64,000 nt of DNA. Source: a virus. The notes under the pieces are model-generated. The model did no database searches, was not told the DNA's origin, and saw nothing but the letters and a program-made list of their open reading frames with translations. Each line of letters begins with the position of its first letter. The stretch's first letter is position 1. Shown piece by piece: positions 26,107-33,079 of the stretch. The position numbers were made by a program, and so were the translations under genes. The DNA lies in the IMG/VR virus record IMGVR_UViG_3300045988_033017, positions 54,699 to 118,698 of that record. One strand, given 5' to 3'.

Positions 26107-26171
26107 AAGAAGACAAACAGCAATTTCCTGTATGTTGGCATAAGTAAATGAATCTATTGTCTTCTGATGAT
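26107..26171 (+). repeat. tRNA-leader stem-loop element, copy a (AAGAAGAC...ACAGCA...GTCTTCTG)
   Basis: 8-bp inverted ends enclosing about 45 nt, immediately 5' of tRNA-Ile. Confidence 0.6.
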
Positions 26172-26245
26172 GGGTGTGTAGCTCAGTCGGTTAGAGCACA
26201 TCTCTGATAAGGATGAGGTCCCTGGTTCAATTCCAGGCACACCCA
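26172..26245 (+). tRNA. tRNA-Ile(GAT)
   Basis: Acceptor GGGTGTG/CACACCC, D-arm AGCTCAGTCGGTTAGAGC, anticodon loop CTGATAA, T-arm CCTGG-TTCAATT-CCAGG. Confidence 0.75.
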
Positions 26246-26274
26246 CAATACAACAATTTTCAATAGCTTTGAAT

Positions 26275-26347
26275 AAGAAGTCTTACAGCACGAAAGAAAG
26301 TGTTTCATATTTTATGATTTTAATTAAACTAAGAGACTTCTGTAGTT
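26275..26347 (+). repeat. tRNA-leader stem-loop element, copy b (AAGAAGTC...ACAGCAC...GACTTCTG)
   Basis: Inverted ends, 5' of tRNA-Pro. Confidence 0.55.
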
Positions 26348-26420
26348 ATGGGTGTAATTCAGTAGGTAGAATGCTAGGTTTGGGACCTAGTTGTCGCCAG
26401 TTCGAGTCTGGCTACCCATA
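26348..26420 (+). tRNA. tRNA-Pro(TGG)
   Basis: Anticodon stem CTAGG/CCTAG, loop TTTGGGA; T-arm GCCAG-TTCGAGT-CTGGC. Confidence 0.7.
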
Positions 26421-26645
26421 CTCCCCGTGGTATCCAAGAGAGGATGCTGATAATCCCATAATAGCAAATATGGACAACTACTCAGTTCGTGAGAATAGAG
26501 TAGTTTTAATAAGAACCATAATTAACACAATAATATATAGTTTCACTAAACAATCATCAAATCAACTCAACAATCAACCCAACAACTTTTAATTTATGAT
26601 TTGATTAACCTGTTTCATAGTTAAGCCCATAAGTCGTATTGATAT

Positions 26646-26717
26646 GTGGGCTTGCCCGAGAGGTTTAGGGGCTGGTCCGCAAAACCAGTTAGGACGGTTC
26701 GATTCCGTCAGCCCACT
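26646..26717 (+). tRNA. tRNA-Cys(GCA) (unusual C33)
   Basis: Acceptor GTGGGCT/AGCCCAC, anticodon stem CTGGT/ACCAG, loop CCGCAAA; T-arm GACGG-TTCGATT-CCGTC. Confidence 0.5.
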
Positions 26718-26735
26718 CTCGATTTAGTGAAACAT

Positions 26736-26800
26736 AAGAAGGCGTACAGCACTAATCATTGTACAGTTTACATGTTTTTGATAACGCGCCTTCTGTGGAT
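26736..26800 (+). repeat. tRNA-leader stem-loop element, copy c (AAGAAGGC...ACAGCAC...GCCTTCTG)
   Basis: Inverted ends, 5' of tRNA-Lys. Confidence 0.55.
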
Positions 26801-26872
26801 GATTCCGGAGCATGTATGGATATGCTATAGACTTTTAATCTATAGAACAGGGTTCAAGTCCCTGCGGAATCA
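26801..26872 (+). tRNA. tRNA-Lys(TTT)
   Basis: Acceptor GATTCCG/CGGAATC, anticodon stem ATAGA/TCTAT, loop CTTTTAA; T-arm CAGGG-TTCAAGT-CCCTG. Confidence 0.65.
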
Positions 26873-30018: not shown

Positions 30019-30092
30019 GGTGGCATTAGCTCAATTGGCAGAGCATTAGGTTGTGGTTCTAAGGGTTACGAGTTCAAGTCTCGTATGTCACC
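30019..30092 (+). tRNA. tRNA-His(GTG) with G-1
   Basis: Acceptor GTGGCAT/ATGTCAC preceded by G(-1) and followed by discriminator C; anticodon stem TTAGG/TCTAA, loop TTGTGGT; T-arm ACGAG-TTCAAGT-CTCGT. Confidence 0.7.
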
Positions 30093-30391
30093 CAATTCTG
30101 CTGTTTAGGTATAAACGTATCATAAATCTTCCTGTTTGGTTTGACTTATTCAGCAGAGTTATATTTTATCTTGAAACGGAATGCCGAGGATGTGGTTAGG
30201 TGAAAATCCTAAGGTGGAATGTAGGGTACGTTGCGTGACGAAGTAATGGGAGTAGGTGCGATGGCAGCTTAATTAATGTTGAGGCCTCGTTAATATATGT
30301 ATAGCTGTACAGCACCGAAGGATTTAGACTGTCCAAAGCAACTGGCGTAATAAAGCATAAAATCCAGTGAAGACGTATGTGTAGGCAGTAT

Positions 30392-30466
30392 GGGGCGGTA
30401 GCGCAGGTGGTCAGTTCGCGCTGGACTGAAAATCCAGAGATAATGGTTCGACTCCATTTCGCCCCA
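30392..30466 (+). tRNA. tRNA-Phe(GAA)
   Basis: Acceptor GGGGCGG/TCGCCCC, anticodon stem CTGGA/TCCAG, loop CTGAAAA; T-arm AATGG-TTCGACT-CCATT; long D-loop. Confidence 0.6.
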
Positions 30467-30495
30467 CTTTAATAGATTAAATAATTATTAGTAAG

Positions 30496-31017
30496 ATGGA
30501 CAATAACTTGTATTATATCTTAGGAGGCATCGCCTATGGTATATTTATCCTACAATTCATAATATCATGGGTTGCTGGGGAGTTCGATGTCGATGTAGAC
30601 TTTGATGGTGATGCTGATTTTGATGTCAGTGATGTTGTATCCTTTAAAGGATTTATCCATTTCTTCATGGGATTCGGAGGATGGACATCTATTAAGCAAT
30701 TATTAGGTTATGAAGTAACCTGGATTGATTGGTTAATAGGATTCTTTATAGGTCTTGTATTTGTATTTATGCTGTATCATTTATATAAGTTCTGTATGAA
30801 ATTGCAGAACCTTCCTAAAGACGAACCGAAGACTAACTTAGTTGGCAGAACTGCTACTATCTATGTACATTTAGGTGAAGGGCGCCATTTGGCATCCGTG
30901 AACATAAGTGGAGCATTGAGAGAAGTAGAAGTTGTATCTCTTAATAAGAAGATATATCCTGTCAATGAGCCAGTAACGATTCGTAAATACGAAGACAATA
31001 AATTATACATAGATTAA
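30496..31017 (+). CDS. NfeD-like membrane protein (YqiJ-like), partner of the SPFH protein
   Basis: 173 aa; N-terminal TM helices, Asp-rich DVDVDFDGDADFDVSD segment, C-terminal beta-rich soluble domain; lies directly upstream of the flotillin-like gene as in bacterial nfeD-SPFH operons. Confidence 0.6.
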   Translation: MDNNLYYILGGIAYGIFILQFIISWVAGEFDVDVDFDGDADFDVSDVVSFKGFIHFFMGFGGWTSIKQLLGYEVTWIDWLIGFFIGLVFVFMLYHLYKFCMKLQNLPKDEPKTNLVGRTATIYVHLGEGRHLASVNISGALREVEVVSLNKKIYPVNEPVTIRKYEDNKLYID

Positions 31018-31030
31018 TACCAATTTCAAG

Positions 31031-32992
31031 ATGGAAATGACATCATTAATTATCGTTGGTGTAGTTGTACTAGTTGCAATCATCACTATCATTGGGATTC
31101 TATCCCGCTACCGTAAATGTAAATCTGACGAATTGTTGGTAGTTTATGGTAAAACAGGCTCTCACAAAGAGAAAGTTAGCGAACGCGACGCTAAAGGTAA
31201 TCTGGTTGACAGAGAAGTTGAAATTAAAACTGCCAAAGTTTATCATGGTGGTGCAGCTTTTGTATGGCCGATTATACAGGGTTATGAAGTAATGTCAATG
31301 CAGCCGATTCAATTGAATCTTGTATTGAAGAATGCTTTGTCAGCTCAAAATATTCGTGTAACTATCCCTACCACTGTAACTGTTGCTATTAGCCAAGAAC
31401 CGCTGATTATGCAGAATGCTGCTAATCGCTTACTAGGTGCTGATGATGACGTTAAAGAAAGTTTGATTTCAGATATTGTTTATGGTCAGATGAGGCTTGT
31501 TATTGCTTCGATGACTATTGAAGAGCTTAACTCTGACAGAGACAAGTTCCTAGCTCAAGCTAGAGACAATATCAATACAGAATTGAACAAACTTGGTCTT
31601 TATCTGATGAATATCAATATCAGTGACATTCAAGATGCTGCTCAATATATTGATAATCTTGGTAAGAAAGAAGAGACTAAAGCAAGAGCGCAATCACAAG
31701 CTGATATCGCAGAAGAAGAGAAGAAAGGAGCAATCCAGATAGCTCAAACTACGAGAGAGAAGGAGATTGCAATTGCAGCAGCTACTAAGGAGCAAGAAAC
31801 TATAGTGGCTGAAACTAACAGGGAGAAAGAAGTTGCTATTGCTAAGACCACTAAAGAGAAAGAAACTCAATTGGCCGAGCAGCATAAGGAGCAGCAAATT
31901 GCTGTTGCAGAGCAAAGAAAGGAACGTGAAATTGGTGTGGCTACAGCCCAAACTGAAGAAGCATCCAAAGTTGCCGAGCAAGAAGCATTAAGAGCTGCTA
32001 AGATTGCAGAGCAGCAAGCTTATGCAACTGCTAAAGAAGCAGAATTTACTGCCAAAGCTGAAGCCGCTAAGGCAGAAGCAGAAGCAGAGAAGGAAGTTCG
32101 TATGGCAGTAGCAGCACAAAACCAAGAAGCTGAAACTGTTAAAGCACAGCAGGAAAAGGAAGCTAAAACTGCACAGTATGAATCAGAAGCCCGTCAAAAG
32201 GCAGCTGAAGCAGAGAAAGCAGCAGGAGTAGCTGAACAGAAAGCTACTATTGAAGTTTCCAAAGCTAAGGGAGAAGCAGAGAAAGCTAAAGCTGAAGCAG
32301 AAAGAGTAGCTGGTACTTCTAAAGTTGAAGCTCAAATGGCAGTTGCTAAAACAGAGCAGGAACGTCAGGTAGAAGTTAATGAAGCTAAAGCTAAAGCTGA
32401 AGAAGCTAAGCTTAAAGCCGAAGTGATTATACCTGCCGAGAAAGCCAAAGAGAAAGCTAAAATTGAAGCAGAAGCTGTTAAGAGTGTAGCCATTCTTGAA
32501 GCAGAAGCGGAAGCAGCTAAAATCTTGAAAGCAGCAGAAGCTAAAGCAAATGCTACTAAGATGCAACTGGAAGCAGAAGCTGAAGGTACCAAGAAGAAAC
32601 TTCTTGCTGAAGCTGAAGGTAAGAAAGCATCTTTAATGGCAGAAGCTGAACAGAAACAGGCAATGGAAATGGCTCCGGCTCTTGCAGTCGAACATATGAT
32701 TAAATCAGGTATGCATCCTGAAGCAATCGTTCAATATGCAATGACCGACAGGTGGAAGGAAGTTGCCGAAGCCAACGCTAAGGTGTTTGAACATATCCAG
32801 CTTGGTAATGTTACTGTGTATGGTGATTCCAACACTGCTGGACAGTTCATGGCTAATATGGCTAAGAATCTTGCTCCGAGTTTGGAAATTGCCCGTAATT
32901 TGCCTATTGCAGATTCGCTTAAGCAAATAATCACTGGCAAGAAGCCAGAAGAATCACCAGCTAAAGGTGATAATTTTCCTCCTGTAAAGTAA
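31031..32992 (+). CDS. flotillin-like SPFH/band-7 protein (YqiK/FloT-like) with long Ala/Glu/Lys coiled-coil
   Basis: 653 aa; N-terminal TM, SPFH-type core (YHGGAAFVWPIIQGYEV...), then about 350 aa of EAKAKAEAEKE-type repeats. Confidence 0.7.
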   Translation: MEMTSLIIVGVVVLVAIITIIGILSRYRKCKSDELLVVYGKTGSHKEKVSERDAKGNLVDREVEIKTAKVYHGGAAFVWPIIQGYEVMSMQPIQLNLVLKNALSAQNIRVTIPTTVTVAISQEPLIMQNAANRLLGADDDVKESLISDIVYGQMRLVIASMTIEELNSDRDKFLAQARDNINTELNKLGLYLMNINISDIQDAAQYIDNLGKKEETKARAQSQADIAEEEKKGAIQIAQTTREKEIAIAAATKEQETIVAETNREKEVAIAKTTKEKETQLAEQHKEQQIAVAEQRKEREIGVATAQTEEASKVAEQEALRAAKIAEQQAYATAKEAEFTAKAEAAKAEAEAEKEVRMAVAAQNQEAETVKAQQEKEAKTAQYESEARQKAAEAEKAAGVAEQKATIEVSKAKGEAEKAKAEAERVAGTSKVEAQMAVAKTEQERQVEVNEAKAKAEEAKLKAEVIIPAEKAKEKAKIEAEAVKSVAILEAEAEAAKILKAAEAKANATKMQLEAEAEGTKKKLLAEAEGKKASLMAEAEQKQAMEMAPALAVEHMIKSGMHPEAIVQYAMTDRWKEVAEANAKVFEHIQLGNVTVYGDSNTAGQFMANMAKNLAPSLEIARNLPIADSLKQIITGKKPEESPAKGDNFPPVK

Positions 32993-33012
32993 TCCTTTTA
33001 CAGTGAATTTCT

Positions 33013-33079
33013 AAGAAGACTTACAGCACTAAGGTAATCATAAGCGATTGATATAGCATAAATAAGTCTTCTGTGGATT
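33013..33079 (+). repeat. tRNA-leader stem-loop element, copy e (AAGAAGAC...ACAGCAC...GTCTTCTG)
   Basis: Inverted ends, 5' of tRNA-Ser(GCT). Confidence 0.55.

Follow-up and report, generated by a model that had tools for sequence, protein, structure and literature searches.

The stretch of viral DNA considered here, referred to as the window, comprises 64,000 nucleotides (positions 54,699 to 118,698 of the IMG/VR record IMGVR_UViG_3300045988_033017). ARAGORN finds 29 tRNA genes in it, all of which are on the + strand. Directly upstream of six of these there is a short element, here termed a unit, whose 5' and 3' ends pair to form a helix (P1) that encloses a large loop; the other 23 tRNA genes are without a unit, as judged with ARAGORN and the covariance model R1. 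On the same strand, at 21914..23608, is a gene for a protein of 564 amino acids in which helical repeats are combined with a von Willebrand factor A (vWA) domain carrying a MIDAS (metal ion-dependent adhesion site) motif. This protein is predicted to be Ro60-like in its fold and is the proposed partner of the units. Below, we describe the anatomy of the units, their occurrence in other phages, where they are co-inherited with the gene for the Ro60-like protein, and what these observations suggest about their function. The six elements in the window are the minimal type of a much larger family.

An earlier note on this DNA, made from its letters, had drawn attention to five copies, at 26107, 26275, 26736, 28698 and 33013, and each of these is an exact match to the pattern AAGAAGNC-N30-60-GNCTTCTG. 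A scan of the whole window with this pattern gives exactly five matches, all on the + strand, where 0.03 would be expected from dinucleotide shuffles. A sixth unit, which precedes tRNA-Thr(tgt), was recovered by a relaxed scan and by R1, to whose training set it belonged. Unit 1 (26107..26166) has AAGACAA as the 5' strand of P1, followed by ACAGCAA, and is separated by the spacer ATGAT from tRNA-Ile(gat) (26172-26246); R1 matches it with E=1.6e-6. Unit 2 (26275..26342; AAGTCT, then TACAGCAC; E=5.4e-8) is followed by TAGTT and tRNA-Pro(tgg) (26348-26421), unit 3 (26736..26795; AAGGCG, then TACAGCAC; E=1.4e-5) by TGGAT and tRNA-Lys(ttt) (26801-26873), and unit 4 (28698..28747; AAGGCA, then TCAGCAC; E=2.6e-5) by ATGAT and tRNA-Arg(tct) (28753-28826). 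Unit 5 (33013..33073; AAGACTTA, then CAGCAC; E=8e-7) is followed by TGGATT and tRNA-Ser(gct) (33080-33168). Unit 6 (35261..35297) is minimal, being only 37 nt long, with GAGATG and TCAGCAC followed by a loop (E=0.043); TTTAT lies between it and its tRNA (35303-35386). All six are on the + strand, as are the tRNAs, which were identified by ARAGORN and Rfam; in every case AAG precedes P1 and CUG follows its 3' strand, P1'. The spacer is 5 nt for units 1-4 and 6 and 6 nt for unit 5, and its last base is T.

The consensus of units 1-5 can be written T-AAG-AAGNC(N1-3)-(A)CAGCA(A/C)-variable insert-(N1-3)GNCTT-CTG, then the spacer and the tRNA. Across the family this becomes (U)AAG-[P1, 5-8 variable bp]-(N)ACAGCAA-insert-[P1']-CUG(A), from which it can be seen that AAGAAGNC in the window copies is simply AAG plus one particular P1. 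The invariant (A)CAGCA(A/C) forms the 5' side of the loop that P1 encloses. What lies between the strands of P1 varies from almost nothing to a hairpin, a mimic of an anticodon arm or a whole circularly permuted tRNA. P1 appears in the minimum-free-energy folds of all six window units. The earlier note had described inverted termini of 8 nt with a purine opposite a pyrimidine at the variable position; the termini are real, but that position can be any Watson-Crick pair (it is T-A in copy 2). Similarly, all five copies that it listed do stand before tRNA genes, at a spacing of 5 nt (four copies) or 6 nt (one) rather than the 3-10 nt proposed, and its view that the elements are structured RNA lying outside the tRNAs is supported. 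No Rfam family matches the units, either at the gathering score over the whole window or at E<=10 in 26050-26900.

The pairing of the ends was examined in a viral contig collection, which was scanned with TAAGAAGNC-N2-4-CAGCA-N20-50-GNCTTCTG; this gave approximately 100 loci with 70 distinct elements, 51 of which have a tRNA 4-7 nt downstream. One base pair of P1 is left free by the search pattern, and in the tRNA-adjacent elements it is Watson-Crick in 51 of 51 cases (A-U 36, U-A 7, G-C 4, C-G 4). Changes on both sides (148 cells) are also seen at five of the seven P1 pairs when 89 diverse short units are aligned separately. Because the way in which the latter set was collected partly imposed the pairing, it is the count of 51 that provides the clean test of covariation. 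The alignment also contains occasional G-U pairs in P1 which, together with a strong bias towards the strand of the neighbouring gene (see below), argue for an element of RNA rather than DNA.

Across lineages the inserts are wholly replaced, in sequence and in length, and the ends of P1 and the CAGCA are retained. Thus the inverted termini, whose absence from related genomes the earlier note had named as telling against its proposal, are kept. In a lineage whose Ro60-like protein is 63% identical to that of the window at least the tRNAs for Ile, Pro, Lys, Arg-tct and Ser-gct are again preceded by units, and a sixth unit lies at the end of the locus. The unit before tRNA-Pro is 68 nt long in the window and 46 nt in L190, one of the related loci; the inserts are unrelated, and the P1 ends and CAGCAC persist. 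The covariance modelling and the search of related phages that the note had recommended reveal a covarying P1 and hundreds of copies, in gut phages and in one cultured cyanophage. Its suggestion that the elements are specific to this tRNA island does not hold, as these copies are spread over many phage lineages and are often found in tandem arrays free of tRNAs. There can be as many as nine units at one locus, often head-to-tail; in L167, L177, L125, L135, L136 and L211 there are such arrays without tRNA genes, and successive units meet at a junction of the form CUGA-YAAG. The distribution of unit lengths has two peaks, one at 40-80 nt and the other at 110-160 nt.

The association that defines the family is with the gene for the Ro60-like protein, which the earlier note had missed, rather than with tRNAs as such. 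The open reading frame (ORF) adjoining the array of L177 matches Pfam DUF7788 and PHROG 850 ('RNA-binding protein'), and is 35% identical to the window ORF at 21914-23608 (E=7e-101). In 35 loci fetched by the RNA pattern alone, a Ro60-like gene is on the same strand, at a distance of 0.1-4 kb, and tRNA-free arrays adjoin the gene directly. When loci were instead fetched by the protein (34-100% identity), units were present in 76 of 79, and in each of the remaining three the available sequence ends within 2.8 kb after the gene. The units in the protein-fetched loci comprise 344 on the strand of the gene and three on the opposite strand, compared with six in shuffled sequence; in 955 kb of unrelated viral DNA, scanned as a control, there was one. 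Amongst 19 divergent array loci, the Ro60-like protein is the only family found in all, the runner-up being found in four. The unit family is strictly co-inherited with the phage Ro60-like gene. An independent test is provided by the cultured Leptolyngbya phage Lbo-JY46 (PP438436.1; locus L306), the only GenBank phage with the gene, which played no part in the training of the covariance model. At 6923-7278, in an unannotated gap right after the Ro60-like coding sequence at 5263-6915, this phage has five tandem units (model E 7e-11 to 0.02). Two of them contain mimics of an anticodon arm with the loop CUUUUAA, which is Lys-UUU-like and so has the commonest 'anticodon' of the family.

The protein itself belongs to a family of at least 601 sequence clusters: of 32 homologs, 31 carry PF11443 (DUF2828) and 26 carry PF25043 (DUF7788). 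Searches of PDB by sequence, whether with the single protein or with a profile, gave nothing, and it was only the comparison of folds that produced matches. An AlphaFold2 model built from the 32 homologs (predicted local distance difference test score, pLDDT, 79) has as its top seven Foldseek matches in PDB seven structures of Ro60, all over the full length, with probability 1.0 and E-values of 1e-5 to 4e-4. The predicted helical-repeat (HEAT) region and the C-terminal vWA fold both resemble Ro60. The MIDAS sequence DxSxS (D340, S342, S344) is invariant in the 32 homologs, and 14 of these give weak matches to the Pfam domain vWA_Ro60 (PF25045). On the basis of the model, the protein is Ro60-like by fold and lies outside Pfam TROVE.

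The long units of other phages have a content that is absent from the window. In them a T arm is followed by an acceptor stem that a short loop closes (with CCA sometimes encoded) and by a D arm, and a hairpin resembling an anticodon arm often comes first. From their sequences, they appear to be circularly permuted tRNAs in which the new ends fall between the D arm and the anticodon arm. Rotation of the inserts leads ARAGORN to call a tRNA that spans the junction for 29 of the 105 long units, and for none of the shuffled or reversed controls. A comparison of L183 with L152, a short and a long unit that both precede tRNA-Arg-tct, reveals a clean insertion of approximately 90 nt of tRNA-like sequence. 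Hairpins with a 7-nt loop of the form YU-NNN-R-N occur in 57 of 151 units, compared with approximately 12 expected; 15 of these loops are T loops, and UUU is the most frequent 'anticodon' amongst the hairpin loops. Examples of putative permuted tRNA genes enclosed by P1 and ACAGCA, in the order anticodon-like arm, T arm, acceptor 3' strand, loop, acceptor 5' strand and D arm, are found in L147 (5352-5506, 7750-7892 and 9676-9819), L286 (7752-7880), L211 (4326-4468, on the - strand) and L125 (2868-2978). CCA follows the acceptor 3' strand in some of them. As in the circularly permuted tRNA genes of Cyanidioschyzon merolae and in two-piece transfer-messenger RNA (tmRNA), the acceptor 5' strand and the D arm come after the T arm and the acceptor 3' strand. 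In the long units, however, a short loop connects the acceptor ends, the anticodon loops are often degenerate and there is no evidence of circularization; the likeness does not apply to the six copies in the window. We found no report of circularly permuted tRNA genes in phages in the literature that was searched. It should be noted that the T arms of long units can be mistaken, in annotation, for fragments of a tRNA or of a permuted tmRNA.

The system that these RNAs most resemble is that of Ro60 and the Y RNAs. The genes for Y RNAs share the strand of the Ro60 gene and lie no more than approximately 4 kb from it (PMC4201824, Chen et al. 2014). They have a stem formed by their 5' and 3' ends and, on the 5' strand, a short conserved motif that is contacted by Ro60; those of bacteria have a tRNA-like domain, and YrlA of Mycobacterium smegmatis is cleaved by RNase P and receives CCA (PMC4201824). 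The Ro60 of the Thermus phage phiLo binds Yrl1 and Yrl2, two Y-like RNAs that the phage encodes, and recruits the polynucleotide phosphorylase (PNPase) of the host (PMC12135203). The likeness of the units to YrlA (RF02553) extends to the position of their genes, on the same strand as a Ro60-type gene and within a few kilobases of it, to the closing stem of 5' and 3' ends around a large loop and to a short invariant motif on the 5' strand beside that stem. As in YrlA and phiLo systems, there are several different RNAs in each genome. The long relatives alone share with YrlA the tRNA-like domain with a closed acceptor stem, some of them encoding CCA after the acceptor 3' strand. In contrast to YrlA, units number up to nine at a locus and often form head-to-tail arrays, several long units have the order of arms given above, and the minimal units, which have no tRNA-like domain, precede genuine tRNA genes by 4-7 nt. 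In the long units the closing stem appears to come out between the D arm and the anticodon arm, whereas in YrlA it replaces the anticodon stem. The partner protein is of the DUF2828/DUF7788 subfamily and not of Pfam TROVE. The covariance model of YrlA matched no unit; its sole match, over tRNA-Pro and the 3' flank of that gene, was at the level of chance (E=1.4).

There are also precedents for small RNAs whose ends are made by the enzymes of tRNA processing, amongst them MALAT1-mascRNA, the tRNA-snoRNA (small nucleolar RNA) units of plants and the tRNA-miRNA (microRNA) transcripts of murine gammaherpesvirus 68 (MHV68). By analogy, the units would be structured RNAs, other than tRNA, that keep a constant short distance from a tRNA or a structure like one, so that RNase P or RNase Z sets one of their ends. 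The precedents come from eukaryotes or herpesviruses, whereas the units are upstream of phage tRNAs of the bacterial type, and cleavage by RNase P is suggested in their case by the spacing and by the U at position -1. Theta ribozymes, which are minimal ribozymes of the hepatitis delta virus (HDV) type, have been reported by Kienbeck et al. (2024) beside the tRNAs of recoded gut phages. They resemble the units in being small structured RNAs that adjoin tRNA genes in gut phages with suppressor tRNAs, and the window does have a tRNA with a CTA anticodon. Theta ribozymes are, however, downstream of the tRNAs and form the HDV double pseudoknot; the units are upstream, have a simple closing stem and match no HDV family at E<=10.

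We think it probable, though by no means assured, that the units serve the phage Ro60-like protein as Y-RNA-like partner RNAs, that RNase P makes their 3' ends by cutting at the downstream tRNA, and that those in the window are minimal members of a widespread family. The anatomy, covariation, distribution and genetic linkage of the units, and the predicted fold of the protein, are the observations of this analysis from which that reading is drawn. The units would be transcribed within the + strand transcripts that carry the tRNAs and ORFs. RNase P, in cutting at the tRNA that begins 5-6 nt downstream, would then free the unit, leaving it a short 3' tail with U as the last base. A tRNA is found 4-7 nt downstream in 126 of 287 unique units, the spacer being 5 nt in 78 of these and 6 nt in 38. 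U occupies position -1 of the tRNA in 108 of the 121 tRNA-linked units that were scored. The gap between the preceding tRNA and the unit is 17-35 nt, which leaves no room for a separate promoter. A 3' end generated by RNase P fits the tight spacer, the U at -1 and this lack of room. The freed module of P1 and ACAGCA would be bound by the Ro60-like protein, as Ro60 binds the motif beside the terminal stem on the 5' strand of a Y RNA. We propose that this module serves for binding and that the insert is a payload, because the units share with Y RNAs their linkage, their closing stem, their 5'-strand motif and, in the relatives, their tRNA mimicry. The resulting ribonucleoprotein (RNP) might act on the metabolism of tRNA or other RNA during infection, in quality control, protection or as a decoy, and in the relatives the tRNA-like payload might recruit factors that recognize tRNA. 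With regard to the roles listed in the earlier note, a small RNA or a precursor-processing element is the best reading; attenuation is unsupported, as there is neither a U-tract nor an alternative pairing. No conserved complement to ACAGCA was seen within the units or the spacer, by eye rather than by a formal search.

Several observations sit less comfortably with a Y-RNA-like partnership. The link between unit and protein is a genomic one. The window units are 2.5-12 kb from the Ro60-like gene and do not adjoin it; folding and R1 detect a tRNA-like domain in none of the six, and their inserts fold weakly (z-scores of -1.2 to -2.8), P1 being stable. Unlike YrlA, the units carry ACAGCA(A/C), which differs from the known Ro60-binding motifs GNCGAAN0-1G, CGAA and GGUCCGA. 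Pfam TROVE (PF05731) is matched by none of the 32 homologs at E<=1, the predicted template modelling score (pTM) of the AlphaFold2 model is 0.53, and its global TM-scores to Ro60 are low, at 0.28-0.35. Finally, tandem arrays have no RNase P site between their units, and so these must be processed by another route or not at all.

Alternatively, the unit might act only in cis, as a leader of the pre-tRNA that works before cleavage, is bound by the Ro60-like protein or by a host factor and chaperones, protects or gates the maturation of the next tRNA by RNase P, instead of acting as a free small RNA. The strict spacing of 4-7 nt between unit and tRNA is what such a leader might display, and the same tRNA identities carry units in the lineage with the 63%-identical protein. 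In addition, a unit together with its tRNA resembles a linear version of the long units with their internal tRNA-like domain, and misfolded RNAs whose 3' ends are single-stranded are known to be bound by Ro60 (PMC12135203). Yet for more than half of the unique units there is no tRNA within 8 nt, and 23 of the 29 tRNAs in the window do without a unit. Since tRNA-free units and arrays keep P1 and ACAGCA, the core function is independent of a downstream tRNA, and we regard a purely cis-acting role as unlikely.

We are more doubtful of the idea that the units and the protein occur together without being partners, the unit being a processing or stability signal of the lineage, such as a nuclease site or a self-cleaving ribozyme, that is co-inherited with the gene but not bound by its product. 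Ribozymes and RAGATH motifs do lie nearby (a hatchet in L125, a RAGATH-1 hammerhead in L256 and RAGATH-34 in the window), the conserved junction between units is a possible cleavage site, and CUGAUGA is present in two of the six window copies. It is absent from the other four, and there is no GAAA/UH core, for which reasons a hammerhead derived from CUUCUGAUGA was rejected. Few nucleotides of the unit are invariant, and the Rfam searches described above include the small self-cleaving ribozymes (hammerhead, HDV-like/theta, twister, hatchet and pistol), none of which is matched. In viral loci the linkage to this one gene persists as protein identity falls from 100% to 34-35%, in gut phages and in a cyanophage, with direct adjacency in small genomes; given so deep a linkage, and given that this gene is the only one shared, ancestry alone is hard to invoke.

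It is very improbable that the unit works at the level of DNA, as a recombination site, a hairpin or a repeat akin to a miniature inverted-repeat transposable element (MITE) that mediates the exchange of tRNA cassettes. Near-identical relatives do swap the tRNA bodies next to units as exact cassettes while the units stay 98-100% identical. However, swapping also affects tRNAs that have no unit (Tyr, Met, Asn, Ala and Phe) and spares the unit-bearing Arg-tct, so that a link between units and cassette swapping was rejected as not specific. A DNA element would also be at odds with the 344:3 strand bias, the tolerance of P1 for G-U and the tRNA-like payloads; neither target-site duplications nor an association with a transposase or integrase (in the 19 array loci) were found.

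There is scarcely any likelihood that the unit is a promoter, terminator or attenuator for the downstream tRNA, in spite of its position directly upstream of genes and of a Bacteroidetes-like -7 box (TAGCTTTG) before copy 2, since the compensatory changes in P1 point to pairing in RNA and not to recognition of DNA by protein, the stem encloses a loop of 20-50 nt and is followed by no U-tract (the 3' flanks are ATGAT, TAGTT, TGGAT and TTTAT, and then the tRNA), the same motif is found in phages whose hosts have different types of promoter (gut phages and a cyanophage), and in both L167 and L177 a whole array is preceded by a promoter-like site; a promoter was rejected in particular because the -7 box is confined to copy 2 and the upstream flanks have no conserved motif.

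A different RNA, RAGATH-34 (RF03103), lies at 21536..21643 on the + strand (Rfam 119 bits), separated by a long non-coding gap (21644-21913) of approximately 270 nt from the Ro60-like gene; a search of 21450-21950 against Rfam gave no further match of note other than to tRNA. It is located some 270-540 nt upstream of this gene in every lineage examined with at least 44% protein identity to the window, and examples in relatives are L190 634-731, L131 6732-6831, L128 6283-6387 (- strand), L229 7629-7733, L231 7636-7733 and L247 7457-7566. In more distant lineages it is absent, and a unit is often found 40-130 nt upstream of the gene instead. RAGATH-34 resembles the units in being present in the same phages, and its consensus has GCAGCAAA after a hairpin and ends in CCUG. 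That it is a diverged unit was considered and rejected: its CAGC is base-paired and covaries (UAGC/GCUA in the window), and R1 does not match it. There is one RAGATH-34 per genome, and no unit matches RF03103. It may be a regulatory leader of the Ro60-like gene or another of its partner RNAs; at all events, RAGATH-34 is now placed beside a specific gene.

The tRNA island has features of its own. In genomes that are otherwise 98-100% identical in the flanks (comparison with L215-L228 and L238), tRNA bodies are replaced by versions that are 50-75% identical. The bodies affected are those for Ile (26172-26246), Pro (26348-26421, with three alleles), Lys (26801-26873), Tyr (24096-24180), Met (26001-26072), Asn (27301-27372), Ala (29331-29404) and Phe (30392-30467). 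For tRNA-Pro, where the alignment was inspected, the breakpoints are the first and last bases of the tRNA, and unit 2 remains 99-100% identical in close relatives whichever of the three alleles follows it. The tRNAs for Leu, Gly, His and Arg-tct and the suppressor are essentially invariant, and those for Cys and Trp nearly so. From these alignments, it looks as though the tRNA genes undergo exact cassette exchange. The suppressor (amber; labelled Pyl by ARAGORN) has the CTA anticodon, is at 25927-25999, 1 nt from the tRNA-Met at 26001-26072, and is 100% conserved in close relatives; it hints at recoding of TAG, and the ORFs, read with the standard code, looked intact.

Two further sites in the island had been singled out by the earlier note. 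The partial sixth copy that it placed at 30310 amounts to the heptamer ACAGCAC, with neither a closing stem nor a match to R1, and was rejected as a unit; the heptamer is not over-represented in the window (nine, with six expected). It lies in a long non-coding gap before tRNA-Phe (30100-30391), in which a stem TCTGCTG/CAGCAGA was seen by eye. Rfam gave no non-tRNA match of note at E<=1 in 29100-30400, a region that spans the sequences before tRNA-Ala and tRNA-Phe, and the leader of tRNA-Ala folds no better than shuffled sequence. The separate 12-bp inverted repeat reported before the tRNA-Met at 41943 is genuine, 41833-41844 pairing with 41927-41938. It closes a different structured RNA (41833-41938, + strand; stem of 12-14 bp, AUAAGAACAUAA/UUAUGUUCUUAU; fold z-score -3.8) that ends 4 nt before the tRNA and matches the units in architecture and position but not in content; with ACAGCA absent and no match to R1, it was rejected as a unit.

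Elsewhere in the window, a tmRNA (19137-19660, + strand; Rfam 60 bits) lies upstream of the Ro60-like gene, as it does at similar positions in many related loci. An ORF of 653 amino acids at 31031-32992, between tRNA genes, matches at the DNA level (68%) the flotillin family region of phage csAssE-Sib (OR575929), the nearest GenBank phage, and the ORF at 36796-37863 matches adenylosuccinate synthetase. In related phages, hatchet and RAGATH-1 hammerhead ribozymes, group I introns and abiF RNA are found near the unit arrays (L125 1620-1705, L256 2569-2641, L135 363-650 on the - strand, L264 15565-15768 and L266 6090-6127). An assignment of hosts through bacterial genomes was rejected, as it was only mis-binned contigs of metagenome-assembled genomes, of inconsistent taxonomy, that matched.

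The concept of a Ro60-type protein with linked and partly tRNA-like partner RNAs, phages included, is already known. What is new is the RNA motif, the branch of the protein, the arrays of up to nine units per locus, the complete permuted-tRNA payloads and the minimal units fused to genuine tRNA genes. The system has no Rfam family and is undescribed in the literature that was searched on DUF2828, RAGATH-34, permuted tRNAs of phages and YrlA or TROVE in gut phages. More tentatively, and with considerable reservation, it can be imagined that many gut phages and at least one cyanophage have a dedicated RNP, in which a divergent Ro60-like protein is loaded with modular RNAs that display parts of tRNAs and which would protect, repair or act as a decoy for tRNAs against host defences that target tRNAs, such as anticodon nucleases, and that it includes the first circularly permuted tRNA genes to be reported in viruses. 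It is an equally tentative suggestion that the parts displayed in such an RNP would be anticodon arms (mostly Lys-UUU-like), whole permuted tRNAs or, in the window, genuine tRNAs fused in cis. If the proposed partnership is correct, DUF2828/DUF7788, a protein family of unknown function, would acquire an RNA partner, an RNP and a function that can be tested, for which Leptolyngbya phage Lbo-JY46 provides a cultured system with both the gene and the units. Hundreds of unannotated intergenic RNAs in abundant gut phages would likewise gain a testable function, and the biology of Ro60 and the Y RNAs would be extended by a motif and a protein branch that are both new, and by the novel architectures of tandem arrays, permuted tRNAs and fusion to tRNA genes.

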